A stretch of DNA of 59,957 nt, counting the filler, from Jimgerdemannia flammicorona (Eukaryota), in NCBI GenBank assembly GCA_003990765.1. It is 3 parts of 3 records of this genome, joined end to end, with 100 filler letters (N's around TTAATTAATTAA, not from the genome) between each part and the next. Parts side by side here need not be neighbours in the genome. Positions count along the whole stretch, not along the records: positions 40,041 to 59,957 come from RBNJ01001806.1; 2 more parts are not named here. One strand, 5' to 3'. The first letter of the stretch is position 1, and every line of letters begins with the position of its first letter. Position numbers and translations under genes: made by a program. The notes under the pieces are model-generated. The model was not told the DNA's origin. It saw only the letters and a list, made by a program, of their open reading frames with translations, and did not search any database. Below, piece by piece: positions 16,138 through 59,400 of the stretch.

Positions 16138-16167
16138 GGATTGATCGAGAACAAACCATATTTTATT

Positions 16168-19826: not shown

Positions 19827-19885
19827 TGGGTGGTTATATTGTATACTTATTTATAGACTGGTAATAAAGACGGAGTCCAAGAGAC

Positions 19886-19922
<37 letters not shown>

Positions 19923-20022
19923 NNNNNNNNNNNNNNNNNNNNNNNNNNNNNNNNNNNNNNNNNNNNTTAATTAATTAANNNNNNNNNNNNNNNNNNNNNN
20001 NNNNNNNNNNNNNNNNNNNNNN
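19923..20022. other. Artificial contig-joining linker
   Basis: 44 N + TTAATTAATTAA (stops in all six frames) + 44 N. Confidence 0.97.
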
Positions 20023-24300: not shown

Positions 24301-25330
24301 TATATAGTAAGATAGTAGTAGTCTTTCTTCAGATACTATAGTTTAATATATAATTATTTCTTCTATAATATTACTAAAGTGAATGAATTTAGTAACTAGT
24401 TTATCATAGATTGGTGGTTTTGATAGAGTTATTACTAGGTCTTTTGTAGTAATATTTGGTAGACTTGATGTTCTAAATAGTAGATCTATAGTAGTACTAA
24501 AACTATTAGTATTAGGTTCAGATATTTCTTTAACTATTCTTCTAGGTCAAGATAATATAGTAGAGGCTTTTTTAGGTCTAGTAGTTTGTAATCCTCACTG
24601 TTAGATTATTTTTACTTATATGTATATAGAGAACTCAGTAGTAGAGGTGGAATTTTCTTTGATTGGTATAATATCTCTTATAGTTTAGAAAGATCTTAAC
24701 TTTGTAGTAGTAATTGTTAGAGAAAAGATTCAGAAAATATTTACTTACAATTTTGATTGATTCTCTTATATTTCTTATAAAAGTAACTATCAATTAATCT
24801 TTCTAATTTCTTAAGTATAATAAATATGTCAAATACTTCTTAGATGGTTTCATTATTAAGTCTATCAAATTCCTCTTAGCTAGTATGGGTCTTAGTCTAC
24901 TTAGTGATGATTTTGTTAGCTTTATTGACTTAGTTCTGAGAAATAGCCAGAGTAAAGGTATTCTTTAATTATTACTAATAATATTGGTAATATTAACTGA
25001 GTTGTCTATATTTATAGTAGATTTCTTAAGAGAAGTTTGTTTATAAGTAGAGATAACTTCTATGTTATCAAATTATAATAAAACTATATACTAATAGAAT
25101 TAATATTTTGTAGATAATTAAGATTAACTATTAACCCTAAGTTCTGAGTTCTTATAAGGAAGTACTGAGTTCTAATTATCTATTATAATAGTATAGTTCA
25201 AGTATTACTTTTGAGTTTTTATATAGGGAAAGATATATATTATACTTATATCTTAAGTAATTAGACTCAGAATTATTAACAAGTCAGATCTGAGAGTTCT
25301 GTGATAAGAATATTACTTTATTTTTATATA

Positions 25331-26915: not shown

Positions 26916-29900
26916 ACTTGGTACCTATTGGCTGGTGATATCATTAAGATCTCTCACTTTCAAGCTGAATAACAAATAACTACCACAATAACTACTCTGA
27001 CTACAAGAGTTTCCCCCTGCAAGAATTCAAGATAAGATAAAAATACATTTCCCTATATTCTATGAATTTACTACTAAAGAGTTAATTCTAATCTTTATTG
27101 AAGACTTTGAACAATTTACTGCTGTATGAGCTCTCAATATTGAAGCACAATTGGTCCTTCTATCTGTCAGCCTCAGAGGACCTATCAGAGATAAGTTCAA
27201 TATAGCCACTATTACTGAAAATAGTGCAACCAAACTCACTAATATGAAGAACTTCCTCAGAACTATATACTATACTGAAGAGATCAAGCAAGCTCTCAAA
27301 GATCAACTCAACACTATCTACCAAGAACTCAATAAAGACCCCAACTCATTCTACACCTAAATCTGCTATCAGATTATCTTGGCTAACTATAATAATGCTC
27401 TCAAGGAACAGATAACTGATTCAATCTTCCTAAAAGGAGTCTACTATGAAATCACCCTAGCAATCCAGTCTATTTCAGCTGCTCTGACTCTTGACTAGAA
27501 AGTGGTCTTTGTATAGAGATATTGGACTATCAGACACTCTGCTGAACACTCAATAGAAAGGATAACTGGCATCAAGATGGAGCCAGCAAAGCCAACTAGT
27601 ATCATATCCACTATAGCCATCAATAGATAACTATTCCCACCTACCCCCAAGATGACCAAAGCTGACCCAGTAGAGGAACTTACTCAGTAGTTTGCCAAAA
27701 TAACTGCACACCTTAGTGATATTGTTAGAGAAGTACAAAGTACCAACAGGAGATCAGTGTAGAAGTTTATAGCTACTATAGAGAAATATATCATTAAATA
27801 TTTCAAATATAGAGAAGAAAACCACTATACAAAAAATTATATAATCAAAACAAGACATAGAGCCCAATCAAGTGATATTACTAGAATTAGATAGTAAACC
27901 AATATTGTAGTCATTGAGGAGATTAGTGATACTAATGATGAAGAATACTATAAGAAGTTTAAATTTTACTCTATTACTAAAGGTATCAGAATCCAGTCCA
28001 AGCTCTATGACAAGAAGGATAATAGTAAGTCAGTTAGAAGACCAAAAAGAACTCTAACTATTACTATTCAAAGTAAGACCTAACTTGAGGAGATTGATTA
28101 AGACATAGAGTTAGATGAAGCTACTTACCAAATTATTGAAGGCACTACTTTAGTCTCAGGAGAAAGTGAAAGCAAGAAAGAATAGAAGCTGTATAAGACC
28201 AAGATCTACTAATATAATATCTATAAGGATCTCAAGGAACAGAAGGTCAATGCTACTTTTGGACAACTAGCAGAAGTCCCTGCCTTCAGATAGTAGTTGA
28301 GAGTAGGACTTACAACTACTATCAAAAACTAAGAGTATAAGATCATATGTAGAAGCTCACAATATATAAGAAGATAAATAAGAAGACTCAGATAAAGAAT
28401 CTAAAAATCAGCACAAGACCTCAGCCTATATCTAATATCAGATTGAAGATTGTATCTTTAATGCTATCATTGATACCAGTGCTGGAGAATGTCTTATAAA
28501 TAAGAAGACAATTGACCACCTAGGCTAAGATATTGAAGAATTCACCAAAATGATCTATATTATAGTAGATAATATATAAGCTACCCCTCTAGACAAGATC
28601 TGAGAAGTCTCTATCAAGATTGGAAGAACTACTATCTCAGTAGATATGATCATTATAAGTATCACTAACTATGACATCCTTATTGGTAACCAATGGCTTT
28701 ACAAGACCAAGGCTATTATTGACCTTAATATCTAGAAGATACAGATCAACTATAGAGGAAGAAAGGTATGAGTCTCTATCAATATCTACAAAAAAGTACT
28801 ACTAGACATGGAGGAAGGAGATAAAGAGGATATAGAAGTCTTCATATACTTGGTATATAAGAACAAGAGTAAGACAACCAAGCTTATAGATGAGCAGTAG
28901 TACAATAAGATTATCAATGGCTATACTTCTTAAGAAATATGCCTCTATGGTGCTAGGATGTACTGCTCTAAACACCTAAATGACTACTGGTCCTATATCA
29001 GTGAAGTTAGAAAAATCCATCAATAAAGATATAAGTAAGAAGTAGCTAAAGCAAAAAAGAAAGCTGAAGAAGATGACCAGCCCTCAGAGCTTCAAGTTAA
29101 TAGTAATGATAAAGAGAAATAAGAACCAAACATCACTCTCTAGGTCAAGAAGTTTTACTCCAAAGTCAAGATCTCAGAATATAAGACTGAAGGAGTCATA
29201 GGAATAGACCTTGTCAGTATCTAAGATACTATTCTCAAAACACAGATCACTACTCTACTTGGTACTGAAATTGGAGTCAAGTTACCAGAGAACTATGTCA
29301 GAATTATCAAGACCAGGAGTAGTCTGGCCAAGAGCAAAATCTCAGTTAAAGGAGGAGTCATTGACCCTGATTACATAAGTGAGATTTTTCTTATAGTTAG
29401 AAATCACAACCCCACCACTCCATTCAAAGTCAAGAAGTATGATAGGATTGACCAGATGCTGATCTATAAAGTTAAGAAGCTTAAGATCACTGAAACCATT
29501 AAACTTAACAAGACTAAGAGAGAAGAACAAGACTTTAGATCTACTGGAAGAGAAGTCTATACTGCTACTAAGATTACTGAACTTAAGTATAAGAAAGATA
29601 AGAACTAGAATAAGCATATATATATTATTAGAGAAAACTTTCCCCTAGAAGAACAACTTCTCAAGATTCTATACCAGAATGAAGGAGTACTTGCCACAGA
29701 CTTCAGAGACATCTACAACCAAGAATCTAAGTATGTACTACTATAAAGTTGACACTAGTAATATCAAGCATATCTATCAGAAAGCCAGACCTATACTATC
29801 TGTCTACAGAGAATAGCTGTAAGTAGAACTCAAGGAAATAGAAGAAGCTAGTATCATCAAGCAAGCTATCAGTCTCTGGACTTCACTCATTGTTCTCACC

Positions 29901-30002: not shown

Positions 30003-30720
30003 TGTAAGAAAGTTACTTATAAAAGTACCATTATGTAGTTCTGGAAGGGTTTTCTAGAAGTTTTGAATATTCTGAAAGACTGTTTTCTTTAGATCAAGAT
30101 TAATTTTATATAGAGTATATTCTCTATGCTTATTGATTTCAAGAGTCTTTTTTTGAACTTATTTTGGATATTCAGGATTTTCTATATTTCAGGAAGTTTA
30201 AGAAACTAAGACCAGCTTAGTTAAATTGGTATATTACTACAGACAATACCCAATTAGGAAATTTTGTGATATGGTTAGGAGTGAGATCTAATAGAGTGTA
30301 GATTTACTTAAGAGTAGTTTGTAGATTATTAAATAGATTTATTTACTATTTATGATATTGCTATACTAGGAGTAGTGTGTAAAGAGATATTGTGGAGAAG
30401 TGTTCAGAAGTTCTTATATATTTGAATTATTCAAGTCTGAGATTCTAAGATCTGGGAGAGGAGATATTTATACTAATAGGAGACTATCTGAACTATGCTA
30501 AATATGGATGTAGTACTTAGTGCCTTACTGAGTCAGAATGCAGTCATATAGTACAAGTGTAAACTGATATATCAAGAGATTATCTGACTACTGAGTTAGT
30601 ATACAGTCATATCATATAAAGCTAATCTAACTATACTAATGACTACTAAGCTATCTATAGATTTAGATACTGTCTGAGTAGTCTTTGATGATATCTCTAT
30701 TGATGATATTATCTCTAATA
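30003..30720 (-). mobile_element. Older LTR fragment homologous to 42940-43670, abutting the truncated RT gene
   Basis: Reverse complement aligns base by base with 42940-43670 and ends in CTTACA; differences are almost all C>T or G>A. Confidence 0.85.
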
Positions 30721-30883
30721 AAGTAGTCATCTATAGTACTCCAATTAAGTCAGAGAAATTTGAACTTAATTTAAATTTACTAACTATATATCTGATTTGA
30801 GCCAGTTGAATTCATTATATGATATAGAAGTACCTAATTGCTAAATATATACAATTACTGGATACATTATATCAGATATATCT

Positions 30884-32105
30884 GAGAAGGCAATAGTGAT
30901 GAGTTGCCCCTTTATTAGTATCAAATTGGTGTCTTCTCCACTTTTTTGTAGTTTTTAGTACCTTTGGCTATGTCTAGAGTATATCTATTTTGGTATAGTA
31001 CCTTCTATCTTTTGCCATTGCCAATAAGGTACTGTCTCAGTATGTTATAGGCTATATAGAAAGTTGGCTGACCTTGGACATCAAGTGCTTAGTATAGGTT
31101 ATCTGCAGATTCTCAGTGTCTATAGTGGGGCTCTCTGGCTTTGGTGAGCTTCTTGGTGAGTACAGTTCTGATATAGGTGACTGCTTTTTGGATATTATCA
31201 GAATGAGAGAGGAGATGGCCATCACAAATAGGAGAAAGAGTGATAACAGTGAACCAATAGGGTGCTAGGCTGAGGGTGGTCATTAGGACTAGAGCAGATA
31301 CTGCTTTAGTAGAGCCTTTTGATTGGTACAGAGTAATTAGGTAATAGGTATCACTCTCAGCTTCTTTTGGCAATTTGGCAAGTTGGACTCCAGTCATTGG
31401 GAGAGATTGGGAGGTCTGAGACTATATCTTAGCTATACTTAACTAGAACTGAGAGTTGATATGGCAATATGATCAAGGCCCATAGACTTGAGTAGTAGGG
31501 TATTGGGGGTCTTCTCTCACCTCATATATAAGTCCTTTACTTATCTCAACTGGGAGAACTAGGCCCTACTCACTATGATATACTTTGATGAGAGTTTTTC
31601 TTTGTCTGTCATTCTCTTTAGGGTGGCAGAGGCTATTCTATTCAGCTTGGGCATGACCTTGTATATACATTGGGGTCTTGGGCATATACTTTTGATTATT
31701 GATATATAGCTAGATTTCTCTTGGTAGTAGGGAGAGCATAGTATATAGAATGAGATATAGACTAACATAGGCCCTACTGTGCCTGGCATAGTCAAACTAC
31801 TGGACAATAGCTAGTCTAGGTTAATGGAGGGGTAGTGCTTGATGGGTGGTGGAGGAGGATTTTTAGCTTATATAGTCTAGGTTCTCTTCTAATAAAAATC
31901 TATAGGACATTGAGTCTATTAAAAAAAATAAAATAAAATAAAATAAAATAAAGAGACAACTCATCACTATTGCCTCTCTCTCACTGTTCTGCAATAGATA
32001 CAGCAAACTAACCCAAGATAGAGGGGATAAAAGTTAGAGAAAGAAGACTTAGAAGATTATCTACCAAAATCTTATAACTAGTATAGTAATAAAAAAAGAA
32101 CTTAT
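30884..32105. mobile_element. Older, rearranged copy of the 1.2-kb poly(A) element
   Basis: 30884-31952 (plus, A-rich tail 31921-31952) and 31953-32105 (minus, 5' part) both align with 54150-55351. Confidence 0.85.
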
Positions 32106-37897: not shown

Positions 37898-39470
37898 ATG
37901 CCCGTCAATCCCGATTCCTATGTTGAGGAGAAGGAGAGGATGAAGAAGTTTCACGGTAGCATCGTCGAGGAAAAAAGCGGCCTCGTCACCTCATTCAAGA
38001 AAGTCACCCAGAAGAACGAGGAGTTGAACGCCAAGGCCGTCGACACCTACTACAGCAACTGGGAAGACAGGAAAGACATCAAGAACACCGAGGAGGGTGT
38101 CCAGAAGAGGCGCGCCAACGCCCAGATCATGACCAACGCCTTCTACGACTTGGTTACTGACTTCTACGAGTATGGTAAGTAAGATCGCAACTGCACTGGT
38201 TTGCATCGGCTGGCAACATGGTGACGAAGCAATATCGCCCCTTCTCTTGTCTCACGCGCGCTTGTGTACCCTTGTTCTGTTTATAGGTTGGGGCCAATCA
38301 TTCCACTTTTGCCAATTGTACAAAGGTAAGCATCAGAAATTTAAGAAATTTATGTAACACCGAGAAATCACGTGCCGTCGCGTGGCTGCGGAAGAAGGGA
38401 AAAAAAAAATTACAGTTCCTAAAATTGTCTCTCGGCAACTCTTTCCAGGTGATACCTTCGAGGAGAACACCAACCGCCACGAAGCCTACCTCTCCGTAAA
38501 GCTTGGCTTGAAGAGGGGCATGAAGGTTTTGGTACGTGTTTGAAGTCGGACTATTGTGTGGGCTTTTTCAGGGCAGAAAAATCTAGGTCTGGATGACATG
38601 TTAACTTTAATCCTCGTCGTTTATTTCCAAAAGGATGTTGGGTGCGGTGTCGGTGGTCCCCTCCGCGAGGTCGTCAAATCATCTGGTGGTGCCCACGTCA
38701 CCGGTCTCAACAACAACGCTTACCAGATCGAGCGTTGCGAAGCCTACTCGCGCAAGTACGGTCTTACCGACTTCACCGCCTTCATCAAGGGCGACTTCAC
38801 CAAGATGCCCATCGCCGACGCCACCTTCGACGCCGTCTTCTCCGTTGAAGCCACCGTCCACGCCCCCAAGCTGGAGATGGTCTACGGTGAGATCTTCCGT
38901 GTCCTCAAGCCCGGAGGCAAGTACGCCTGTTACGAGTGGTGCGTGACCGAGAAATACGACGAGAACGATCTCTTCCAAAAGAAGATCGTCCACGGTATCG
39001 AAGTTAGTAGTGTTGGGTTTTCTGGGTATCTGCGGTACGGTCTGATTGTATTTATCCAGGTACTCTGACGCATACAAATCGGCTGACCCAATATCACCTT
39101 CCCAAACGCACAGGAGGGCAATTCGATCTCCAAGATGTACAAGACTACTGCTTGCCTCAACGCCGCCAAGTCCGTCGGCTTTATTGTCCTCGAGGAAGGC
39201 GACGTCGCGCCCGTGACGAGCGCCACCGAGCCCTGGTACTATGCTCTGAGCAACGCGTCCGGCCTACGCGGCTTTGCTCGTTCGCCCATCGGCCGCGTCG
39301 TCACGCACACCACCGTTACTATCCTCCAGGCTCTCTACATCCTTCCGGCGGGCGTCAAGGAGACCTCCGCGCTCCTCAACGACGCCGCCGACAAGCTGAT
39401 CCAGGGCGGCGAGCTTGGGATCTTCACCCCCATGTACTTCTTCTTGGTGCAGAAGCCCCATGCTGCTTAA
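37898..39470 (+). CDS. ERG6: Sterol 24-C-methyltransferase; exons 37898-38174, 38287-38325, 38449-38531, 38634-39002, 39114-39470
   Basis: FYDLVTDFYEYGWGQSFHF, RHEAYL, VLDVGCGVGGPLRE, GLNNNAYQI, EATVHAP, YGEIFRVLKPGG, YEWC, IFTPMYFF; canonical splice sites keep the frame. Confidence 0.96.
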
Positions 39471-39940: not shown

Positions 39941-40040
39941 NNNNNNNNNNNNNNNNNNNNNNNNNNNNNNNNNNNNNNNNNNNNTTAATTAATTAANNNN
40001 NNNNNNNNNNNNNNNNNNNNNNNNNNNNNNNNNNNNNNNN
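39941..40040. other. Artificial contig-joining linker
   Basis: Same N-TTAATTAATTAA-N 100-bp spacer. Confidence 0.97.
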
Positions 40041-42189
40041 ACATTCTTCCGAGGACCTGCCGAAGAATGGTGGCGAACCCTTCCTGAAAAACCCCTCACA
40101 TGGGATACCTGACCTGCAGTAGTTGCTCAGAATGCAGCAAACAATGCCCAAGGATATGGAGCCCATCCTGCAGCCTCTGGACTCAAACAACTCATGATTG
40201 CTCAATATTGCAGCGAAACAATGATTGCCAAATCCCGAGTAAAACTCCACAACCTCAAATTTGATGTACATGGCAAAGAAGAATTCGAAACCTTCTGTAC
40301 AAAACTCGAGTCACTCCTGAACACTGTTGGCCTAGGATATATTGCCAATGATGAAGCACGAAATGGTATAAGAGCAGACCATTTATTCGATGCACTGCCT
40401 GAATGGCTTACTAGAAAAATCTGAGAACAAGGCCGCCCAGTTGGTTGCGACCACCAACAATGGTGCCTGGCAAGAATCAAGACCATGGTCAAGCGAATCC
40501 TAACAGCTGGACCAATTCTGCCCCGAAGGCAATTCAACAACAAGGAAAGGACTTGGACTAAGAAAGAAGAACCCAAGCACAAAGCATCCCGAGCTCCCTC
40601 CACATCCACCTCTTGGACACCCAGAAATCATGAACCCACCCAACCAAGTACCTTCAAGAAACTTACTGAAGGCGAAAGAAATAAACTTCGAAGAAGCGGA
40701 GCATGCTTCTACTGCCGAAAGACAGGACACATGGCCAGTGCCTGCCCCAACCAAAAACCCCAAACAGCAACACGAGCAACTGTTACCACTCTGCACCACC
40801 TCAACAACCTGACCACCAGAATACTAGACTTTGTCAAGTTAAGACAAACTGCTAAGGCCCCAACCAAAGGAAGTCAAAAAGCAGCCGGATATGACCTATA
40901 TGCCGCCAAAGAAGCTACAGTCTCCAACCGAGAAGTCAAACAAATCTACACAGGAATCAGTATCCAAATCCCTGAAGGACATATTGGAAGAATATGCTGT
41001 CGCAGTAGCCTAGCATTAAAAGGACTCTCAGTAGAAGGAGGAGTCATTGACGAGGATTACACAGGCGAAATTATTGTCCTCATCTGAAACCACAGTTGGA
41101 CACCCTTCAAAATCCCTATTGACTTCTGCATCGCCCAGATCCTGTTCGAAAAAATTGAGTCAACCTTGACAGTCAAGGAAGTCCCTGAACTACTACCCAC
41201 CATCCGAGGATCCAAAGGATTTGGCTCATCAAACAAGGCCCCAACCCAACCTACTGTAAGCAAAGAAGAATAATTCTACAAGAAGATAGAAGATGGATAT
41301 GTACCAAGTGGCCGATGCCCTCATGGTATTGGAATGTACTCTTCCCGAATGATTGATGATTGCTTCTCTTATATCAATGAACTGGCTCAAAGAAGAACTA
41401 ACAGAAGAAAAGCTCCTACAATGGAAATCACCACTATTGGATCAGACAAACTGCTCACCCTTAAAGCTTTTGTCAACGGAGCACCTGTCAAGATTATGAT
41501 AGACAGTGGTGCCTCAGGCAATTTCATCAATGAGGAGACAGCCAATAGACTCAAGGTCTTCACCTCTCCAGTACAGCAAACTCAAGCAGTTGCTACAGCC
41601 GATGGAACCTCACATGTTATTAGCAAAGAAGTCCGCAATCTACCCTTCCGAATTGGCGACTACCAAGTACATGTTACCCTCCAAATTGTACCACTTTCTG
41701 ACAATGAAATCATCCTTGGGACTCCATGGTTAAAACAAGAGAACCCCATGATCGATTGGGTAAACCATTCTCTGACCATCAAGAAAGGACACCACAACTT
41801 CAAACTACAAGGTAAAAAGGACTCACTCAACTCTAGTAACCCTGGACTGAAGATCACCCACATCAACAAACTACAACTCAAGAAATTGGCCAAGAAATGC
41901 CCTCTCTTCGCCATCTCCATCCGACCATCCAAAGGAGAACCCGAGAACTCTGAAGAAGACTTTTCCAAAGTTGACAGCCATGTCAGACCACTACTCCAGA
42001 AAGTCCGAGACACATTTCTGAACCGAACCACTAAACCACCTGCACCTGTTATTATTAATGACCAAGAAGAATACAAAGTTGAACAAATCCTCAACAAACA
42101 CAGCCACAAGAACCACCCAAATGGTACAACAACACCAGAGCAAATTAGAAGGCCCCGACGAGGACGTCGAAAGCTAAGAAGGGGAGAGT
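40041..42189 (+). mobile_element. Ty3/gypsy (chromovirus-like) internal region: gag - CCHC - dUTPase - protease - chromodomain stub; RT/RH/IN deleted
   Basis: GPAEEWW; CFYCRKTGHMASAC; AAGYDL/RSSLA/GGVIDEDYTGEI/IAQ/RGSKGFGSS; IDSGASGNF and ILGTPWL; then PPAPVIINDQEEYKVEQIL. PPT AAGAAGGGGAGAG lies immediately before the LTR. Confidence 0.93.
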
Positions 42190-43670
42190 TGTAAGCGCAC
42201 AACCTCCAAGCCACCAAAATTGCATGGTATCCTCAGAACTAATTCGGAAACCACATGCGAGACTACAAAACAAGAGATCATCTGGTTACACAAATACACC
42301 AGCAAGCACGAGAACCCACTGCCAAGATACAAGAATACTAAAAGAAGTACTACAACCATAAGACTGACTCTGAACCACTATAGCTAGTTTGGTGTACTAT
42401 ACTATTACAAAAGAAACCAAAAGTACCAAACTCAAATCAAGACAAGAAGAACCCTATCTCACCCATCAAAAGGTTCATGAACTGCACTTATCAACTCAAG
42501 ACCAAGATATACCACGACTATACAAGACCTCATTACTTAGCAGAAGCAAAACGCATTTGAACAACTCTGTTCGCTTTATCTGTATCACCTCCGTTGGAGA
42601 GTGACGGACACTTCATCTGAACTCAAGAAAGCCGACAACATCGAAACCAATCTCAAGCCATCCATGTGACAGATATTACTACTAGAAATTGCCTCGGATT
42701 ACAGAAAATATCATTTCCGAGAGGTTCGAACCCCCAGCCGTGACATTGGGAGCCCTCGCCCTAGACGAGAATGGCCAGTCCTCGCAAATGCACCAGCAGA
42801 TCAAAAAAAAAGAGAACCAAGACCTGTTATCCTTGTACAACCACTGCCACTAAGGACAGTCTTAATCTTACAAGAGATAGAAGTGACGACATCTTGAAAA
42901 CTGATGATGTCAGAAGTCAGAAAACTGCTCAGACTTTGGCAGTGATGATGTCATCAATAGTGATGTCATCAAAGACTAACCAGACAGTGCCTAAACCTAT
43001 AAATAGCTTAGCAGTCATAGTATAGTTAGATTAGTCTTGTATGACGTGACTGTGAACTGACTCAGCAGTCAGACAATCTCTTGATATGTCAGATCACACT
43101 TGTACTACATGACTGCATTCCGACTCAGCAAGGCACTTAGTGCTACATCCATATCTAGCATAGTCCAGATAGCCCCTCACTAGTATAAATACCCCCTCCC
43201 CCAGACCTCAGAATCTCAGACTCGAACAGACAAGAACATTCCTGAATACTTCCCCACAATACCTCTTTACACAAATACTCCTAGTATAGCAATATCATGA
43301 ATAGCAAATAAACCTATTCCATAACCCACAAACCACTCTTAAGTAAATCTGCTCTCTGTTAGGTCCTACTCCTAACCCTGTCACGAAATTTCCTAATTGG
43401 GTATTGTCTGCAGCGATACGCCGATTCAACTAAGCTGGTCTTAGTTTCTTGAACTTCCTGAAATATGGAAAATCCTGAACATTCAGAACTAGTCCGAAAA
43501 AGTACTTTGGTTGAGACGTCAACCCGATCTTGAAATCAATAAGCGTAGAGGACATACTCCATACGAAATTGATCTTGACCATAAGAAAACGGTCTTCCAG
43601 AACATCCAGAATATCCAGAAAACCCTTCTAGAACTACGTAATGGTCACCCTAAAAAGTAACCCTCTTACA
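42190..43670 (+). mobile_element. 3' LTR (~1.5 kb, possibly composite)
   Basis: Begins TGTAAG right after the PPT and ends CTTACA (6-bp terminal inverted repeat); TATAAA near 43185; abuts LINE ORF1 sequence. Confidence 0.7.
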
Positions 43671-45244
43671 GGAGGCCACATCCACCAGATCATCCTCCTC
43701 AGTGCCCTTCTCCAGCTGAACCACTTCGCCTGCCTCTGGGCATTCTCAATACATATTCGCTGCTCCCGCCATGCAAACATCCTCTACCTGGGTCTCTGGT
43801 ACTACCTCAACAACCTCCTTAAAGCCTCCAGTGGTTGCCTCCTCCTTATCCACCCACTTCCCTGTCACTAGTGCATGAGTAGAATCCTCCACACTCTCCA
43901 GTTGTGAGAAGGACACCTCAGCCATCTCCACCTCTTCCATTTGACTTTTGGCCATCTCTGCTTTTTCCTCCTCCTCCCTTTTCGAGCCCTGGAGGACTGT
44001 CTGCAGATGCTCCCAGTTTGCTCTTCGCCACCTCTTCCTCTTCCTATCAGTCAGAATCCAGATCCAATTCTTGGCAAACTCCTCCCATTTCCTCTTCCGC
44101 AATTCCTTCACAGCCTCTCTCTCCTCTAGGGTGACTAGCAATTCCTCCTCCTCCTGTTCCAAGCCCTTCCTTCTCCACACCTTGCACTCCTGCCCTCCGA
44201 TGCAAACTACTTCTGGCCAGTCTCTCCCTTGCCCCGTAGCCTCCTTGTCTTCCAGCCTCACCATTACCTCACAGTTGCCATTCCTCAACTTGGTCTCCTC
44301 CCAAAACATGAACCTGAAGTCAACCATCTTGCCAAATGCCCCCAGTGCCTCCACCACCATTCCTTTGGTCTCCTGTCTCCCCAACGTCAGCAGCCCTTCA
44401 ATCACCAGTCGCACTGCCCACGGGTCCCACCTCAGGCACCTCGCCATGCCAACCTTGATGCTCTTGATGACCAGTCCTTTCTCCAAGGCCTTCACCATCT
44501 CCTCCTCCTCGATGAATCCTATCTCAACCACCTCAGCTGATGGGATGAACTTCAGCAACTCCGCCCCTGCAATCTCCTCTCCAACTAGCCTCAGGACCTC
44601 CCTTGCGGACATCCCCAGCCCCAAAAAATTCGCCGATATGGCCCATGTCAACACCGATTTGTGGAAGAAGGGATGCACCACCAGTTCACCAGATCCAGCT
44701 GCCATCGTCACCTTCTTCTTGTTCTCCGATACTCCAGCAGTCACCCCAGCCACCGGCCCAGCCCCAGGAATACCAGTCTCAGCCACACCACTTCCGGACC
44801 CCTGGCCCCTAGCAGGCACCTGACCAGTCACCTGACCCGTCACCTGGCTGGTCACCTGACCCCTACCCCTGTCAACACTACACCCCCCCTGCCCTACCCC
44901 CATGGGCCTAGTAGCCACCCTCCTGCCCCCCATCACTGTGTGCCAACCCGCAATGCCAGTCTGCCCCCCCTGACCACCTACTTCTCCTGCCCCTACATCT
45001 GCCCCAACTGTCACCACAAAACTCTTGGGGAGACCCAGACCAGGCCTCCTCCTCTCCAAATGCTCAGAGCTTGATGAACCCTGGGTTGCCATCTGACGGA
45101 AACTCCACCAAAATCGATGAGACTCATTGTATACTGTAGCTAGACTCCTGCCGCACCTTGTATACCAGAATAGATGACGGGAAAACTTGAAAACGTGTTG
45201 CTTATCACGAAAAGATGTCCGTGTAGCTTAGCTTACTCTGAATG
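43671..45244 (-). mobile_element. 5' half of a related LINE with a 448-aa open ORF1 stretch (43746-45092)
   Basis: MARCLRWDP...FGKMVDFRFMFWEETKLRNGNCEVMVRL...RDWPEV aligns with ORF1 at 14794; the 5' end is CATTC at 45244. Confidence 0.88.
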
Positions 45245-46403
45245 GTTCGAGCAAAAGGAGTTGAGAGTACCCCTCAAGAAGGACTCCTAGCATCAACCTG
45301 GGTACTGCAGACCCTTATCACTTTATCCTCTACCGCCATGAAATGGAAACAAGGATCACCATTGCCACCGAATGCCTCCAAATATAGCAGGAGTACGAAA
45401 TAGGAAACCTCCTCTGCCGGGAGTTCCCACAGGCCAGCCCTCAAGAGCTACAAGATGCCACCCCCATGGACCTATGTGAGGCAAGGACAGCAAAGAAGAT
45501 CCATCAGATCTTCAGGCATGCACCATGGTCAATCCCCAACTTGGAGTATATTAGAGTCTCAGACTTCAGAGACCTGTCATCCCGCCATATCAATACACTA
45601 GAAGCCAGAGTAGCCACAGAAGCCCAGTCCACCATCACCCTCAACAGCAAAGAAGTAGAAGACTTCTGGCACCCTATCCATTAGGACAACCCAGACCAAT
45701 TCCTGCAAGGATTGATCTCAGTATTCCAAGGTCCAAGCATCCAGGTTAGATCTCCTCAAGACCCCACATTTGTCCCCTATTTTGTGAAAGAGAACCTCAT
45801 AGACTGGAGAGCTCCAGACCTTGTTCCCGATTTCCCCGCCACAGCTGAACGTGATGACGTCATCGATGACGTTATCCCGCGCGACATACCTGAAGTATGC
45901 AAAACGCATGACCTACATGACGAATTCGCGGACCTCATCTCCTTCAGTGATGATGATGATGATGATGATGAAACTCCCATGATCCTGAACTTTCTGCTCT
46001 AAAAAGTTCTTTGTTACACTGGATAATGCTAGCACCAGTATTCTGAGGTGATGCGAAATTGTTCCAGCACTAGCATTTTGATGTGATACTAAATAATGCT
46101 AGCCCTGAAACTCAGTAGTTTTAGTTATTGGAATTTATATTTAGCTTTATATCTTACCAACCATTGAATTATATTTTATATAAATACCTTCTGAAATAAA
46201 GTCAGTCAAGTTCACTTACACACACTTCCTTGCAAGCAATCTAAGAGATAACAAGACAGTTAAAGATAAGAAGTTTGAGGACTATAAGACCTTGGGAAGG
46301 CACTCCAATAAGAACTTGCTTATAACAAACTTGAGTTAGTCTAAGAGATATACCTTGAAGAGAATCTGGTGTATTTGAAGGACTCAGCGACCACTACATG
46401 ATA
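45245..46403 (+). mobile_element. LTR of the 25331-26915 family (solo or 3' LTR), 5' part cut by the LINE
   Basis: Colinear with 25660-26915 through AAGTTTGAGGACTATAAGACCTTG to the terminus CATGATA (from CGTGACA); no PBS follows. Confidence 0.8.
45265..46002 (+). pseudogene. LTR-internal ORF of unknown function, acidic C-terminus, two in-frame TAG stops
   Basis: Single frame RRTPSINLGTADPYHFILY...QIFRHAPWSIPNLEY...DNPDQFLQGLISVFQGP...YFVKENLIDW...DDDDDDDETPMILNFLL*; homologues at 25650-26425 (+) and ~51250-51990 (-). Confidence 0.75.
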
Positions 46404-49400
46404 CTAGTAATATCAATAAATGATAGCAAGAATTTCTAGTGATATATCCTAGATAAAGGTCTTGTTCTTGGCTTTACAGTCTCCTTCATGATTGATCTCT
46501 TTGTATTTTCAGCAGGTCTAGCAAATTTGGAATTCTTGTAAGGTGGGATTTTTTCTCTTAACCTGGCTCTTGAGGTATCTTTGCTGAGGTAAACTTCAAT
46601 ATTTGTACCAGTAACAGGCAAAGGTCTTTTCACAATCACAGTATCCTTGCTTTATAAATTCCTCATTCTGTTATTTTATTTCCTTAATTATTGGATATCT
46701 TTTTCAATATTTATTATAGGTAGGTAGAGTGATCTATAGAGTCTAGGTAATGGTGTAGAAACTGTTGTTTTTATCTTCAATTATGAGGGTCTCTAAAGGT
46801 TAGTAGAAGAGGATCTTATGTTCTTCCTTATAGGTCTTCTTGAAAGCCTTTGAGGTGGGTGGTGATATTTATATAAGAACTGGAACTCATTTTAACTCAT
46901 TCTTATCTTCAATTACTGGTATTGAAATCTTTTTGAGATTAAGAATTCAGCAGTTGCTACAATCATCTCTTGGTGAGTGAAAACAGTTATAGTATTCATA
47001 TATATATACCTAGGTGGAAGGCTCATATAATTCAGTTTTCCTTTAAAGATAGTAGTAGTTATGTATATAGATAGTTCTGCAAATCTAAGTACTTCTTCTT
47101 TACTAATGTTCTATTAGGTACTTTCCTCCAGACTTTTAGTATATAAAAAGGTCTTCTTGGCTACTTTTAGGACCTCTGGTAGTATCAAAATCACTTTCTA
47201 GTTCTTGCAGAAAATTTGCTTTGCTTTCATTCTCTGTAGTAGTGGATATATCTCTACATTCTTACTATCTCAGAAGCCTGATCTGCTTTTCTTGGTGATC
47301 TCTTTGACTTAATTGGTATCTTGTGATTTTGACCATAGAAGGTGAAGACTAGGAGTTGTTTCCTGATGTCCACATTGGCTCCAACTTAGTGTAACCAAAA
47401 TTAAATTATAGGAGGTTATCAGAGTTACAACAGCTTGAGGTATATTGAGACAGGCTTTTTCAACTTGAATAGATATGTCTCTGACTAGTCTAAAGAGGGT
47501 AAATGCTGATCTATCTTATAATAACTCTTGCTTTGATTCCTTCATCAATTCTCCATTTAATCTTTTCTAGTATTTACTGGGTAATAATACAGACTACTAC
47601 TCTAGTGTCAATAAGGATTCTAGTATTTTCATCATATACTTTCCCATTAGCCAGTCTGTGAATTGATATTCTTGATACTAGTATCCTTGAACTGCATAAA
47701 TAGTGCTAGACTCCAGAGTGTGTGGTTCTTGGACAGAAACTCTCTTAGTGTCTTTCTTGACTTCTTTGAGAAATTTTCATCTAACTTCTACAGCATTCTG
47801 AGTATAGAGATATTCCTAAAGTGATGCTGCTTTATGGGACTTACTACTCCTTCAATATCTAGATCTCTTAGAGTAAATCCTCTCATTTCTATTAGGTATT
47901 TAATCAGCTGAAAATTCTATACTTATATACTCATCTTCTTCAAGATCAGGTAGAGAGGTACTCCTTAATACTCTTAATAGACTGGCTTCTGGTTCAGAGG
48001 TATCTCTTCTGACTCTTTTATCATTTTTCTAAGGAGTATCTAAGGAGGAATGGCCATATCTTAAATGTTTGCCTATAGATATAGTTACTGGCAATAGTGG
48101 TGGAAGTGGGTTTTTGGAGGTCTTCCTCATCCTCTGATCTATGTGGATGCTGCATCCCAAGTCACCTTAGAGGGAAAGGCTTTATAGTATGGATAGATAT
48201 CCTCTTGACTATAAAACCAGACAGTTTCTTCTTCTATTTCTCAAGTCTTTTTATCCATTTGAATGAGGTTGACATTTCAGTCATTGGACAGAGTTTGTTT
48301 CTTCAGAAAAAACCTCTGAATGTAACCTTAGTTTCTATAGTTAAAGTAAGTTATAATATAGGGACCTGTTGCTGGAAAACCTATAATTACAGCTGGTGGG
48401 GCCTGAGTGAAACTCCTGTTGTCTTGTTATTGATAGTTTGATCTATTATCTCAATGATAATCTTGTTGCCTTCCTCTTTAGTTCTTTAACTAAGCAACTG
48501 CAATGGCTATATCTTTTATTTATTTGGTGAGTATTATTATAGAGTTCTCTTGAATCCTTAGTAGTAGCTGTTTTGCCACTTTTGTTATCTATATTGGCTC
48601 AGAGTTGGGAGCAGGGGTCTGGTCTCATAGTTAACTAACTGAGCTCTTAAGTAGGTATTCTCTTATTTTATAGTTGTGCTATAGGTCCTTAGACTTTCAA
48701 TCTGAGCTTATTCTCAATATTCTTGTACTTGCTGAGATAATCTATAGTCTGCTTTCCAACATTCTTGTGTTCCAGCAACTTATTGCTTAATACTTTGATT
48801 GCTCATTCTAATGACTTGCCTTCTAAGCTCAGAAAATATTCTATTGAGAAAAATAGTAAAGGTCAGAGCTAGTTGGGCTGCAGGTTATAAGTTTGTCTTG
48901 ATCATTTGAGCTTGAATTCAGTGATAGAAACTTTTTGGAGTTTCATTAGTAGCTTGGCTCATATAGGTTAAAGCTTCTTGTACTTCTTATTGGTACTCAA
49001 GACTATTGAACTGAGTGCAGAACCAGGTCTTATAGATATTATATCTGTCCACATAGTCTCCATTTGCTTGAAGATTGTTGGCTTTTTCTACTCTATGGAT
49101 TTCTCCTCTAACTTGCTTTGCTTGATTGTACTTTTGTAGGACAGGGCCTCTCAGGAGTGATTCCATAATTCTGAACTTTCTCTAGGCATCTTACTGCTTA
49201 ATAGCTACTTATACTTCAATTTCTCTAAGGAATTCCTTAATATCTTCACTGTCTGCACTATGGAATTTCTGAAGATAACTCATGTCTGATTCATCTTCAC
49301 TATCTGAGTCTGGTTCTGGGGTAGGGTTTCTTGATGATCCTTGAGATAGGAATGGTAGAGATGCTTGATGAACTAGGGATACTGGCAGAGAGTGGTGTTT

Positions 49401-50203
49401 TAGTGGGGGTATAGAGAATCTGGCTCTTCTAATTTAAGTTGGGGTAGAGATTCTTGATGGTAGAGGTTCTTTAATTGAGCAGTAGTAATCACTAAATACT
49501 GAGGTTAGCATTATATATATCTCTTGAGGATAATACTAGAGTGTGAAGAACCAGAGTACTGGAGTTCTGACAACTAGGATAGGACTGATGTAGCTAATAC
49601 TCAGTTCATCTGCTCCTTACTATTGTGAAGTAGTAGAGTTCTGTTCATCTTGTCAAGAGTCTATATTTCTGTCTAAATAGTAATAAAGGTTGAATTTATC
49701 ACTTAAATAATCTGAGTAATTTCTTCAATTATTGTCTTCCTCTAGTTCTGAAAGATAAGAATGATAGTCTTCTTCTCCTTCAGATGTTTCAAAGTATACT
49801 TGGTCTAGTAGAGTGGCTTGAGTAATAATAGTAGTAATATAATCACTTCTGTCTGAATCTCTTCTATAGATTAGAGTCTGATATTTTTCAGAAAAATCTT
49901 CTTCTTGTTCTGGGCCCTGGGTCTGGATGGGTTCAGATTATCCTCTGAGATACTTTTCTTTCTTTAAGGTCAAATTATAGTCTGTATTACTTCTTTCTTC
50001 TGATTCAGTTTTCTGACTACTGGTCCTGAAGAGAGTGAGAGCTGTCCTGACAATAATGTGAGCTTCTTTTTCTGAGTTGAGCTATTGCTGGCTCTGATCT
50101 TGTTGCTGGCTAGTTTCTTCTGATTCTCCACTATAGATGGCTGCTGGGTTCTTGAGCCAAATGGCCAAGTCTTTAGAAAACTTTCCCAGTTAAGCCACCA
50201 AAA
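46404..50203 (-). mobile_element. Decayed Ty3/gypsy internal region (gag, protease) of a second family
   Basis: PBS-like TGGTGGC just after the LTR end; gag LQKFHSADSEDIKEFLREIE (~49280-49220); protease RILIDTR (~47620) and FWLH*VGANVDI. No RT was recognised before the truncation. Confidence 0.75.
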
Positions 50204-52328
50204 TGTAGCATATAATTTATATAGATCTAATTGCTAATAGATACTGATATATATAGCTCAATGGTGCCACTAATTATATATGTAGGCTATCAATATCTTT
50301 ACTAATAATATTATGGCTCAATGTTCAGTTAAACTGCTATTTAATTTGTTTGCATTTCTTACATTAGGTTGGAATTTACATATTATAAATCATTGGTCAC
50401 ATGACTAGGTATTTAGAATGGCAGAATGTTGGAACAGTCAAAGAATATTTTCTGTGAGTTTTCTAAGCTTCCTAGTAGTTAGCAATTGTTTCCTAGTATC
50501 TCTGATGAGTTTTCTGATAAGTTTTCCTAGGTCTGATACTCTGATTTTTATAGTGGCAGTAGTTCTTGGTATTCTAAGTGATAGTCATTTCCTTATCTGA
50601 CTGTAGCAGTGATTCTTAATAGTTCTTAATATTCAAATTTCTGTGGCAGCATTTAGAGTTTTTTTCCAAAGTTCTTATACTTGACTTTTCTTGACTTTCA
50701 GAACTTAAGTTGGTAAAACTAATTGACTTGTATCTTTGAACATATAGTCTTATATGTATCTTAAATCTTGAATTTTAGGATCTTATATCTAATTTCTGTA
50801 GCAGTGATAGTAAGAGTGATTTTCTTTGGCTTTTGGAGTATTTTTTCAAAGTTCTTATACTTGACTTTCCTTGTCTTTCAGAACTTAAGTTGGTATTGTC
50901 TTGTGTTATATATCAATTGACTGAGATTTATTTACTACAGATCAGAGAGATATTTTTACAGATTTCAGGCTATATATATAACTGGGTATTTGGTTAAAAC
51001 TCATAATTACTAGAAGATACTATTTAGTACACTTTTGGAATTCAGGTGACTAACTAACTAAAAAAGACTAGTTTTATATTTGTGATAAATTTGGCTAGTT
51101 AATATATAGTCACTGTTTATATAATTAACTAATTAACCTGAATATGACTAGTTAAATATACAATTACTAACTTACTCAAATTTGGCTAATAGAGTTATCT
51201 TTATATATTTTAAAGTTCAATATGATAGAGATTATATCATTCTTATCTTTCTTCTCATTTTCTTCAGAGAGTCTGGCTAAATTATTTTCTATATTTTTCA
51301 CAGTTGTGTTAGAGTCAGTAAGAGGGTCTTAAAAGGGGGAAAGGAAGTTGTAGGTATCATCTTCTAGTAAAATAAGTGAGTTGTCATTATTCTCCAAGTT
51401 GTCTGAAATAATATCATTCTGCTCTTAAGGTCTTTAGTCAATAGTGAGGTCATCTACAAAGTAGGAAACATCTGTAGAGTTCTGAGAGTAGTGGACTCTC
51501 AGGGGAGAGCCTTGAAATAGTGCAATCAGACTATAGAGAAATTGGTCTAGATTATCCTCTAGAATAGAGTTCCAAAGATCTTGAACTTTATTACTCTTAA
51601 CTATGATAGTAGATTGGATCTCCTTAGCAACTATTTCCTTAAGATAGTCTATATAATAGCTTGTCAATTCTTGAATATTAGAGATCTTGATATACTTGAG
51701 ATTGGAAATAGCCCAGAGTATATGTCTGAAGATCTGATAGACTCTTCTGATCAGTTTTTACTTATATCTGTTTAATCTTTAATTTCTTGAGAGCTGGTCT
51801 GTAAGAACTTCTAGTAGAGGTGAGATCTCATTTCATATTCTTGCTAAATCCAGAGGTACTTAGTAATAGTTGTAATTCTTATCTCCATTTTCTGGTAGTT
51901 GAGGATATAGTGATAGGTGTCTCTTGTATAGAGGTTTAAATTAGGGATCCTTCTTGTATACTGTCTTATTATCCTCTTTATATCAGTAAATATTTATTCT
52001 TAAACTGATGAATCTGAATAGCCCCTTGATCTTGCTGTTTGGCAGATGACAGATATCTTATTTTGTAATGAGTTTGTAATTAATGCCTTACCCTCCTTCT
52101 CTTAATATTTCTTTTATATCTTGAGAGTCTGCTCCTTTGATCTAAAGTATAGAGTTATCTGACTTAAGTAATATACTGCTGGAGTCATTATGAGTTATCA
52201 TGAGTTTGGTTATAGATTATCTTATAATCAAGATGAGTCACAGTTAAGTTATAACTTGTAACTGATAGCTTGCTAAGCCTAAGTAGTCTTCAGATTCTGA
52301 TATCACTAGTTTCAAAGGTATTGTTATA
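50204..52328 (-). mobile_element. 5' LTR (~2.1 kb) containing the third copy of the LTR ORF
   Basis: Ends TGCTACA before the PBS; starts TATAACA (from TGTAGCA); its first ~150 bp resemble 25331-25480; internal direct repeat at 50640-50720 and 50790-50895. Confidence 0.72.
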
Positions 52329-53304
52329 ATATATATAATAATCTTAAATAATATATAGATATATAAGCCAAAATATAAGTATACTAAGTATAAGTATAGC
52401 TCTATAATAAAAAAAAACTCAGTTTCTACTATTATAAGTATAATAAAAAATATAACTAGTAAAATAAATATAGTTATTAGTATTTGAGATAATAAATAAT
52501 TCTCAGAGTAAATAAAATTGAAGTCTAACTTAATTTAAGCTTTAATTTAAACCTTCATTTTTAAAATTTAATAACTTATCTTATTTAGAAAAATCTAATA
52601 TAATAAAGATCATTAAATTTGGATATATTTTGGTTTAGTTATTGGATTTTAAATTTGTCTCTTAATTTAAATTGAATTGAATCAGATTTTAATTTATGTA
52701 ATTTAAATCTAATTTGATTTGGAAATATTAGTAATAAAGAAGTTCTCACTAGTAATAGAGATAATTGTAAGTTCTTTTTGATAATAGAAATGACTATAAT
52801 AAAGTTCTCTTAGTAATAGAGATATTTATAATAAAGATATTATAACATATCTGGCTCAATAGAGATAAATTACAAGATTGAGGATTGATGTAGTTTGGCT
52901 TGAGCCCCCAGTTACTTTATTAAAAGCAAAAAAATATTCTTAGTATTTAGTGATATAATAGTCAATTTGAATATAATGGTAATTCCTCTAGTTGTATAGT
53001 AGTTGATTTGTATATTGATTTTCTTATTGAGACAGTTCTCTGGATATAGTGATAATTTGTGAATGGGTTTCCTTCTTGGGTCAACTGGGAATTGATAGAA
53101 TTTTATATGTAGTGCAACAATCTCCTTATGTGTGATGGTCTGGTAATTTAGCAGTTTTCCTTCTTGGGTAACAGTAATCTCCAAAGGTAGGCAGTTTCTG
53201 GGAGATGATCTTTATATAGCATAGTGGTTTCCTAAAACAGTGGCTTACTGGAAATTATTCTGGTAGCAGGTTCTTCTATATTGGCTCACTAGAAATAAAC
53301 TAAT

Positions 53305-56473: not shown

Positions 56474-59400
56474 AATTTATATTATACAAACTTTAAGCAA
56501 TATCTTTCAATACAACTCAGAAAAAAGATACTAATAATATAACATCAAGTAAGAGTTCTAATAGATATACTAGATCAGGAGGACTTGAGACATTTAGCTG
56601 ATAGTATATAGAGAGAAGTTATGGCCTGGTGATGGGCCCTTTTAGAGGTACAAATAGTGGTGAAGAATCTGGAGAAGAGTTAGTGTCAGGTGGAAATAGG
56701 GGCAGATCTGGGTCTATAAGTTTTGCTGATAAGATGAAAGAGAGTAGATAGCTGGTAAGTACTTAGGCTAGTATAGCTGAAAGGAAATGTATGGCTTACC
56801 TGGAGAGGGCAGAAGGTCCTATGCTCAGGGGAGTGGGTGTAGGAGTAGGAGGGGCTGTGGCTGAGAGCAGTAGTATAACTGCTGATAGAGATATAAAAGA
56901 GTATCTGGAAAAATAAACAAAAAAAAAAAAAAAAAAAAGAGATGTGATAGCTGATAATAGAGCTATACTGGGGGATAGACAGAGGTAGGGAGACATAGCT
57001 GATGATATAACAGACCTGGTAGTAGCTCTATTATTCAAGAAATTTATCTCAGAGTTTATAGTCACATTATACTTCCAGAGCTTAGCAGTAATGGCAAAGG
57101 TGGTACTGGAGCTGATCTTGAAGAAGATAGCTAGAGCTACCTCAGTAAAGTTCCTGAAGAGGTTTTAGAGAGTTGAAGTGGGCTTTGAGGAGGCTGTCTC
57201 CTTGTAGGAGGCATCAAAGACTAGATTGACTATAGGAGAGATAGTGGTTCTAATAGCTTGCTATCTAAGGTGAGACTTCAGGGTGGTCCAGCTATTAGTG
57301 AAAGGTGTGCCCATGGTGACAATGGTTGAGATAAGGAAGAGGATAGAGAAAGTTATGGCTGAGTATAGTGAGGTTGCTGACATTGGTTTGCAGGTCTGAG
57401 AGGGGACTTTATTCAGAATAGAGAATGTAGATATCAGACTCCAGCTGGCTGGAAAGGAGGCTATAGAGAAGCTGCAGAACTAGTCCTCAGTATTGATGTG
57501 GAGTACATCTATCTACAAGGTGATAAGAGTAAAGAAGAGTATAGAGGAGGAGAAAGATCTGGTGAAGATATTGGAGGAGCTTAGTGGAGTGATGGAGCAG
57601 TGGACCAAGGTGTGGTAGGTATATATAGACTTAATATACCTAGAAGTAGTAGATAAAAAGTACATTCAAGTGGATAAGAGGCAGTGGAAGAGGGCTTAGA
57701 GGTATAAGTGATAGAAGGAGTTACTGGCAAGTTTGAAGGAGAAGGAGAAAGTATCACCTAGTTCTAATAGAGTCTCAGGGAGTATAAAAAAGAGTGTCTG
57801 GATGGATGATGATATAGGGAGGAGTGTGAAGACTGTGGGTGAGAGCCAGAAGATAAGGGATCAGATTCTCTATGATAATAGTATACTAGAGATATGAGAG
57901 GAGGGTAAGATTATGAGAGAGTAGTCTGAAGTTATACAGTTAAAGGTTGGTGAGGATATAGAGATATTGAGAACTCACTATATTCAATTTGAAGTATCTG
58001 ACATATATAGCAAGTGGGGGGCAGATGGTTGGGATTGGGAGAATGAGCTGGTAGATATTCCTAAGGAGAAGTGGGATAAGTCTGCAAGTACTGGGGCTGA
58101 TACTATAATGCTAGAGAATGGCAGACCAGTGACCCCTAAAGGCAAGGAGATTGGTAACCTATAGTGGATGTACCAGGTGATAAACAACTTAGTAGCTGAG
58201 AAGTTAGAGAATATAGACCTGTGAGTTATAAGTGAGAAGCACTGAATAAGAGCACTGCAGAGAAATAATATTGTAGAGACCCTGATAACTGAGATGCTGG
58301 TAGTATTCCTGGATGAGAAAAGATATGCAGTAGATGATATAAGAGAGACTAAGTTGGTGGTGGCTGCTAGGAAGTATACAGTCTTTTGGTGGAAACAGAG
58401 GCATAGACTAGAGATCTAATAAGAGATATGCTTGAAATACTAAGAGGAGATGGAGAAGAAGGATGGTACAGCATTGGCCAAGCTTTTGATTAGGTAAGAG
58501 ATTAAGTAGGTTGAGAGAAAGGAGGCTACTGTGGAATATAGATTAGACTTAACTAGAGAGGAGATAAATATTATGCTATAAAGAGGATATATCTATTGGG
58601 ACTTCTTTCTCTTGAACCATACTGGTCAAAAGGCCTGAGTGGAAATTAGATCCCTATGGTTTAGGAAAAGGAAGGCCATCAGTACCCCAAGGTTAAGTAT
58701 ACCTGAAGCAGCAAGAGAAGAGGAGTCTGATAGTATCAAGTTGCTCCAATCTCAAGGCTATAGTTTTTAAGAACCCAAGGTTTTAATGCTTCAGAGATCA
58801 GATGGTATAATGTAGGCTCTGGGAGCTATTAGCAACAATGCAAGGAGATGAGAAGCTATTCTTCTGATAGCATGGCCAGCTTCATAGTGAGTGTCTAACT
58901 TATTAGTATACTCTGGTAAGCTGGGGGATATGGGTCAGGCCCTTAGACTTGCTTTCATACTGGGGGGACTTTTACTGCTTCTTTAAGACATAGAGGTGTC
59001 TTGGGTGATTTTAGAAGATGCCTAGAGGATTTTGAAAGGTATAGCTGATGATTGGCCAAGATAGATGAGGTGAATTCAATATATGGTACAATGGTGGCAG
59101 ATGATTAGTAAATATTGAATAGTGCAATATAAGATAGTGGAACAATTAGACCAGGAGATTGGCTAGTGATGGAATGATAATTAGCAAGATTATTAGTAGG
59201 GTGACTACTTCACTGCTTTGGAGAGAGGGAAGCTAGTAGACTGGGTGCAGTACTGCAGGGGTACTGGAGGTACTGGAGTCACATCCAGTGACCCTTTGGA
59301 GCAAGGCCAGATATGATAGCAGTGCCACTTGAGATGCTGGTGTCACAAGCCAAACAGTGACTTCTGACTCAGAGCTAGACAGAGAGAGTAGTAGTCAGAT

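Follow-up and report, generated by a model that had tools for sequence, protein, structure and literature searches.

A putative accessory gene within the long terminal repeats of gypsy-like retrotransposons of Jimgerdemannia flammicorona

Three homologous copies of one open reading frame (ORF) are present in the window, that is, in the whole stretch of 59,957 nucleotides of the Jimgerdemannia flammicorona assembly GCA_003990765.1 that was analysed here. The ORF is probably a genuine accessory gene, lying in sense orientation in the U3 region of the long terminal repeat (LTR) in a dUTPase-carrying, gypsy-like lineage of fungal elements. As far as sequence comparison goes, an accessory gene that is borne by the LTR and kept under selection is well supported.

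RESULTS

Three copies of the same ORF

The window consists of three ~19.9-kb pieces. The joins between them are artificial (N runs around the TTAATTAATTAA linker, at 19923-20022 and 39941-40040), and adjacency across these two joins is meaningless. Self-comparison with blastn revealed three homologous ORF copies, one (A) in the second piece and two (B and C) in the third:

25588-26425 (+): ORF copy A, strongly degraded (many C>T/G>A changes, frameshifts); start codon now ATA
45273-46002 (+): ORF copy B, the most intact of the three; 5' part cut off, with the first ~35 codons missing
52056-51176 (-): ORF copy C, decayed, with one frameshift; start codon now ATA, TGA at 51178-51176

In that comparison, A matched B over 549 nt (25690-26227 against 45277-45825, 72% identity, E 2e-79) and C over 541 nt (25573-26105 against 52073-51548, 68%, E 2e-33). 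A and B also matched 3' of the ORF, in two blocks that were both 80% identical (26577-26672 against 46121-46206, and 26748-26899 against 46233-46387). A first-pass annotation of this DNA had claimed that the same ORF occurs three times, and this was borne out by the blastn matches and by tblastn, which, used with six family proteins, found no fourth copy in the window. All the protein blocks which that annotation had listed, namely RRTPSINL, QIFRH, WSIPNL, DNPDQFL, FQGP and YFV..ID, were seen on translating A, B and C. As to coordinates, its three places were correct, but its start was 21 codons too far 3', C extends to 51176, and B begins at 45273. Positions 25588 (A) and 52056 (C) were taken as the start because the N-termini of four relatives that begin MP..R..QT (P0005, P0012, P0013 and P0015) align just inside them, from 25594-25603 in A and from 52041-52044 in C. 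Incidentally, TATAAATA at 25581-25588 was considered as a promoter of the ORF and dropped, since it sits directly 5' of the degraded start codon and overlaps it.

Reading the frames gave 25 in-frame stops in A and nine in C. B had only two, both TAG, at 45385-45387 and 45682-45684. Counted by depth, related contigs read the stop at 45386 as a sense codon in 832/932 in run X1, 31/36 in X2 and 844/844 in X15; for the stop at 45682, the corresponding figures were 893/910, 53/53 and 745/745. Contigs of two runs extend 5' of 45273, with codons for the N-terminus that B is missing. B was 85% identical to the relative P0004 over 249 aligned positions, and the nearest relative of C was P0016, with 46% identity over 239 aligned positions.

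A protein family under coding constraint

Relatives of the ORF product were retrieved in three protein searches: six among 208 candidates in the first search, five among 1.84 billion representatives in an exhaustive search, and 13 among 6234 candidates (5.8 billion protein clusters) in a profile search. These 13 were about 30-100% identical to the reference member, and some of them were apparently full-length. Every relative was on a short JGI or ENA contig (567-4848 nt), and because protein databases are built from predicted ORFs, open frames are over-represented in them. Identity to P0004 ranged from 28 to 98% in the alignment and from 30 to 85% by best local match. Neither a name nor a Pfam family was attached to any relative. 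At least four diverged subfamilies were recognised, that is, the A/B type (P0004, P0005), the C type (P0016), P0012/P0013 and P0014/P0015/P0018, and conserved motifs run along their shared core. The existence of intact relatives elsewhere suggests that selection keeps the gene.

Coding constraint was also visible in the copies of the window. In B, the correct frame had three stops in 243 codons, the terminal one included, and the other five frames had 9-20. To compare these decayed copies, we counted transversions only, thereby avoiding the transition bias; the underlying DNA alignment, made with MAFFT, is poor over the C-terminal third. Transversions at codon positions 1/2/3 numbered 14/10/21 for A-B, 44/33/57 for B-C and 36/28/48 for A-C, showing an excess at position 3 in each pair (21/45, P = 0.043; 57/134, P = 0.016; and 48/112, P = 0.022, respectively). 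The transversion pN/pS was 0.65 for A-B (P = 0.21), 0.55 for B-C (P = 0.0013) and 0.49 for A-C (P = 0.0004), all of these being upper bounds because the copies kept decaying after inactivation. It was significant for the two cross-family pairs and not for A-B. The first-pass annotation had proposed a real coding gene under selection and had set a dN/dS near 1 against that proposal. With a transversion pN/pS of 0.49-0.65, at least four subfamilies and the stops of B read as sense in three runs, the proposal is supported.

Properties of the predicted product

The predicted product is an acidic protein of ~270 aa (pI about 4.5), with HQIFRH.PW and DNPDQ[FW]LQ..F[QE]GP as core motifs. Its first 45 residues are basic, with a pI of 11-12 in P0004 and P0005 and less in the other subfamilies; the core is acidic, and the tail is very acidic (pI about 4.05) and contains the conserved hydrophobic motifs DLISF and LNFLL. 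Such an acidic, hydrophobic-studded tail would be compatible with a tail of the activation type. No hydrophobic span was evident on reading the product sequence. Two AlphaFold models were poor (pLDDT 51.6 and 53.7), and they agreed on a helical core and disordered ends.

Searches for a known family or fold were negative. Pfam gave no family for B at E up to 10; for 10 members at E up to 1 it gave only ATG5_HBR, in 2/10 members and with a best E of 0.088. A sequence profile search of the PDB returned 0 matches. Along with the relatives, which carry no Pfam family, these results agree with the first-pass annotation, which had recognised no family. The comparison with Foldseek that it had proposed found nothing in PDB or BFVD at E <= 0.001. 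The best score in ESM Atlas was 0.86, below the trusted level, and a wide structure search with VIA-align reached at best Z 4.5 (TetR-type helices) and 3.6 for the Arc C-lobe, within the noise range. No fused form was found among proteins of 600-2000 aa, a result that the search tool rates as weak evidence. Judged by its sequence, the product is a new protein family.

Location of the ORF within the probable LTR

The boundaries of the repeats, the PBS-like sites and the patterns downstream of the ORF were as follows:

25300-26915 (+): LTR of element A, ~1.6 kb, with a 5' edge uncertain within 25300-25334; 3' end ...TGTGACA (26909-26915), then a PBS-like site
26916-26933 (+): PBS-like site and leader start of A, AC TTGGTACCTATTGGCT
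45273-46403 (+): LTR fragment B, of the A family; 5' end cut, 3' end ...CATGATA
50204-52354 (-): LTR of element C, ~2.15 kb; ends ...TGCTACA at 50210-50204
50185-50203 (-): PBS-like site of C, TT TTGGTGGCTTAACTGGG
26632-26641 and 26661-26666 (+): TATATAAATA and AATAAA of A, conserved with B in the 80% block 26577-26672 against 46121-46206
46177-46186 and 46195-46200 (+): TATATAAATA and AATAAA of B, conserved with A

In A, the terminus TGTGACA is followed by AC and then TTGGTACC; in C, the terminus TGCTACA is followed by TT and then TTGGTGGC. A PBS-like TTGGTG... thus lies two bases past the terminus in both elements, the call being made on the TGG-start pattern only, and gag comes next. TGCTACA occurs three times in C, at 50803, 50608 and 50210, and it is the one at 50210 that precedes TT TTGGTGGCTTAACTGGG. 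The distance from the ORF to the terminus is 490 nt in A and about 970 nt in C. LTR A matches B at 72-80% in blastn, and related contigs read ...CATGACA where the 3' end of B reads ...CATGATA.

Contigs of public runs gave a further view of the unit. Those of four runs cover 45273-46401 exactly; in 4/4 runs (1329, 122, 32 and 8 contigs) they pile up on 45256-46431 and are sparse or absent in the flanks. The three listed continuations past 46401 all start with CA: the one from X2 is the A-type PBS/leader, and those from X15 and X3 are unrelated DNA. The 3' flank of B itself is unrelated DNA as well, B adjoining the cut-off interior of C at 46404, which fits nested insertions. Among the continuations listed and the two window copies, 2/5 junctions at the fixed end lead into a PBS (A, X2) and 3/5 into other DNA (B, X15, X3), a split to be read as a sample, with 133 further loose-end entries beside it. 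A single fixed end with PBS/gag next to some copies and other DNA next to others is the behaviour of an LTR and not of an internal region. The unit is therefore very probably an LTR. The termini of A and C and the contig junctions together support the earlier view that the ORF sits inside a repeat ending at an LTR terminus and a PBS. Fragment B could represent either a 3' LTR or a solo LTR.

At the 5' side, colinear similarity between A and C begins near 25310/52354, and TGTGATAAG is found at 25300 in A. The LTR termini named in the first-pass annotation were recovered in part: the TGTGACA and TGCTACA ends are there, with PBS-like sites, whereas the exact 5' strings TGTCACA and TGTAGCA gave 0 matches. 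Transition-degraded look-alikes of these strings occur at 25331 and 52328, in AT-rich DNA. Nested insertions or the ends of the pieces interrupt each of the three elements, and blastn self-comparison found no LTR pair flanking one element within the window, so neither target-site duplications nor the two ORF copies per element proposed in the first-pass annotation were seen.

Downstream of the ORF, AATAAA lies 9-20 nt past TATATAAATA, and a conserved 150-nt stretch, common to A and B, then runs to the terminus. TATATAAATA and AATAAA are candidates for the LTR core promoter and the poly(A) signal, respectively, at the level of patterns that sit in AT-rich DNA. The 3' part of LTR C contains a 67-nt direct repeat (91%) at a spacing of 180 nt, 50649-50715 and 50829-50895, and TRF found only short periods among the tandem repeats of the LTR tails. 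The ORF is the only part that aligns between the A/B and C types of LTR.

DNA relatives were also looked for by pattern. Peptide patterns gave 593 matches in metagenome contigs and 21 in viral contigs, with 0 relatives in either set, and a 22-mer common to A and B had 0 matches in a scan of the DNA collection.

The host elements

Three element interiors were delimited in the window:

27013-29548 (+): interior of A; gag-like 27013-27453, RVP_2 protease 28460-28747, dUTPase 29165-29548
48825-49313 (-): gag-like core of C, homologous to the gag of A
40041-42900 (+): element D; gag with a CCHC knuckle (by eye), dUTPase 40851-41231, protease 41442-41792

The sense orientation of the ORF upstream of gag, proposed in the first-pass annotation, was found again in both A and C, gag-like regions following downstream in the same sense. 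The Pfam matches of A (RVP_2, E 5e-6; dUTPase, E 9e-20) are on the same strand as the ORF, and its interior is cut off near 30000. Pfam gave nothing at E <= 0.01 for the interior of C, and within the window neither A nor C has an RT or an integrase. The gag of A and that of C were related at E 1.6e-7 in blastp, with 23% identity over 163 positions. The host elements do differ, as had been claimed: their LTRs end in TGTGACA and TGCTACA and measure ~1.6 kb and ~2.15 kb, respectively, and the gag is 23% identical. The assignment to gypsy rests on gag, RVP_2 and dUTPase in A, and we call the elements gypsy-like.

Element D, within which the third piece begins, has strong matches to dUTPase (E 1.5e-32) and to a protease (E 6e-13). 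As judged by eye, its protease leads directly into an end resembling a chromodomain, and no RT, RNase H or integrase lies between them; D is an internally deleted derivative. The domain order is protease then dUTPase in A and dUTPase then protease in D, and the two elements are only about 22-35% identical in these domains. We considered B as the 3' LTR of the upstream D and rejected this, given that low identity, the fact that B shares the LTR family of A, and the cut of B at 45273.

Other repeats surround these elements. After D, on the plus strand, 42802-43385 looks like a short LTR, with a purine run at 42802-42816, then TGTTATCC..., TATAAATA at 43185-43192, AATAAA near 43309-43314 and ...CCCTGTCA near 43385. 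Between D and B, in non-hypermutated DNA, lies an intact 448-codon ORF (43746-45092, -). It has no Pfam family (best match PspC, E 0.32) and weak leads in ESM Atlas (best 0.89; CCHC and DUF4780 clusters at 0.83). Runs X1 and X2 contain contigs related to this ORF, which may belong to a further element as its gag- or ORF1-like gene. A repeat shared between pieces (30003-30724 against 43670-42933, 80%) cuts off the interior of A, and two more are shared at 30886-31953 against 55225-54147 (78%) and at 14534-15269 against 56992-57728 (66%).

Mutation spectrum and wider window

Gene-like DNA of the window has 45-57% G+C, and repeat blocks have 17-35%. Among 375 changes from B to A, 115 were C>T and 87 were G>A. 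Comparing 25300-26915 with 45273-46403, the decay rate was 26/41 at CpG (0.63), 47/94 at CpA (0.50), 0.36 at CpC and 0.27 at CpT. This is the mark of RIP-like hypermutation or deamination, although it extends further than the CpA-only pattern of classic RIP.

Elsewhere, G/C skew is -0.47 to -0.49 at 9000-11000, -0.42 at 13000-14000 and +0.31 to +0.51 at 14000-20000, a stretch across which G+C is 47-57%. A sterol methyltransferase gene at 38600-39460 (+; Sterol_MT_C, E 2e-20; Methyltransf_11, E 2.5e-18) fits a fungal host. The only tRNA gene in the window is a tRNA-Leu(AAG) gene at 2060-2144 (-).

DISCUSSION

The layout that we propose is like that of sag in MMTV and unrelated to it in sequence. 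Apart from the elements described here, genes placed in this way are known mainly from a small number of retroviruses. In both cases, a sense ORF of several hundred codons would lie in the U3 of a long LTR, upstream of the LTR promoter; for MMTV, PMC2118998 speaks of an ORF region of the 3' LTR. The position of our ORF relative to TATATAAATA and AATAAA fits this Sag-like layout, again at the level of patterns in AT-rich DNA. The differences are plain, however, since no Pfam family was matched by the product and hence no sequence relation was seen, and since MMTV is a mammalian retrovirus, whereas the elements here are fungal retrotransposons. Sag is, moreover, a membrane glycoprotein, in contrast with the acidic product found here, in which no hydrophobic span is evident. 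Accessory genes also occur at U3 in nef of HIV/SIV and bet of foamy viruses, which overlap the U3 of the 3' LTR and begin in the internal region; these only overlap it, they start internally, and they have no sequence relation to the ORF.

Among retrotransposons, the closest comparison is with additional ORFs (aORFs), which PMC7264820 describes as conserved extras of LTR retrotransposons, present in most copies of a family and of a function that is not known. Like them, our ORF is a conserved extra. Yet that review assigns aORFs to the internal region, where most of them follow pol and precede the 3' LTR, and brtn in BcGypsy1/Boty of Botrytis and Sclerotinia is presented as internal and antisense (10.1101/2021.04.13.439636), whereas the ORF here is within the LTR and in sense. 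Fungal chromoviruses bearing a dUTPase (PosPlaTy3 of Postia, Phanerochaete elements, Tmt1 of Tuber) carry it beside the protease in variable order according to PMC2864245, as do A and D, in which the order differs. Unlike what we describe, no LTR-borne ORF is reported in the accessible part of that paper, where a figure legend mentions an 'add. ORF' whose position is not visible. Retrozymes, with hammerhead ribozymes in their LTRs (PMC9695139), also show that an LTR can hold more than a promoter and a terminator, but their modules are RNAs and not protein genes. Our searches of the open-access literature brought up no fungal or other non-retroviral element described as having a protein gene in its LTR.

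Could the unit be something other than an LTR, with a true LTR that is short and an internal ORF placed between it and gag, as in plant elements that have an additional ORF on the 5' side? The window has no LTR pair and the 5' edge is ill-defined, and PMC7264820 describes LTR retrotransposons with an additional ORF ahead of gag. Against this, the ORF unit ends at one fixed nucleotide, with unrelated DNA at 3/5 listed junctions and PBS/leader at 2/5; the PBS-like TTGGTG comes after the unit in A and C, not before the ORF; and the ORF ends ahead of the LTR terminus and the PBS in both elements, which is not the place of an aORF between LTRs. We consider this alternative unlikely. It also seems improbable that the ORF is a passenger, that is, a captured host gene or a relic without a role for the element. 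No function is assigned to its product, and PMC7264820 does allow that LTR retrotransposons transduce host sequences, but it adds that transduced genes occur in one or few copies, whereas the ORF is shared by four or more diverged subfamilies and by two types of LTR that can no longer be aligned outside the coding part. Its pN/pS is below 1, and the matches, five among 1.84 billion representatives and 13 with the profile, include none that is named and none in Pfam.

Two further readings concern the protein itself. A chance open frame in a repeat, never translated, is very hard to credit in view of the relatives in protein databases, the conservation of motifs, the frame and pN/pS results, and the sense codons that nearly all the depth of related contigs has in place of both stops of B. 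A dose-dependent inhibitor serving copy-number control, made in amounts that scale with the number of LTRs, solo LTRs included, is rather doubtful. Location is what would favour it, as every LTR would be a gene copy, and Ty1 reportedly has a precedent in its self-encoded inhibitor p22; similarity to gag-derived inhibitors did not, however, appear in the Pfam searches.

We thus return to an accessory gene in U3 as the preferred reading. The ORF would begin ~250-290 nt from the 5' edge of the LTR and end 0.4-1 kb before its 3' edge, and it is placed in U3 because short repeats, a conserved TATA box and AATAAA would lie downstream of it. During reverse transcription, both LTRs obtain their U3 from a template at the 3' end of the genomic RNA. 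For this reason, the ORF would travel as the 3'-most cistron, and each LTR, even a solo one, would contain it. Its expression might follow one of two routes: a subgenomic or spliced RNA that draws on the copy in the 3' LTR, or a transcript that starts at a promoter within the first ~250 nt of the LTR and ends at the LTR's own AATAAA.

As for its role, we tentatively suggest that the protein may be a trans-acting regulator that favours the element, by activation of the LTR or by counter-silencing. The idea of a transactivator or anti-silencing factor, already raised in the first-pass annotation, is a guess, prompted by the acidic, hydrophobic-studded tail. The full scheme, a speculative one, would be that of a retrovirus-style U3 gene in a fungal lineage, of which every LTR, solo ones included, might be a working copy, with a dose that tracks the number of LTRs and a product acting in trans on transcription or silencing, as an activator or as a copy-number sensor.

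LTRs are treated as non-coding control regions and are masked by annotation pipelines. The ORF described here defines an orphan protein family, of which 13 members were found and which lends itself to simple tests. If our reading is true, solo LTRs could stay genetically active and gene dose would be tied to repeat number. It would also mean that the retroviral habit of placing accessory genes in U3 arose in a fungal retroelement as well, which would constitute a new regulatory layout for non-viral retroelements.
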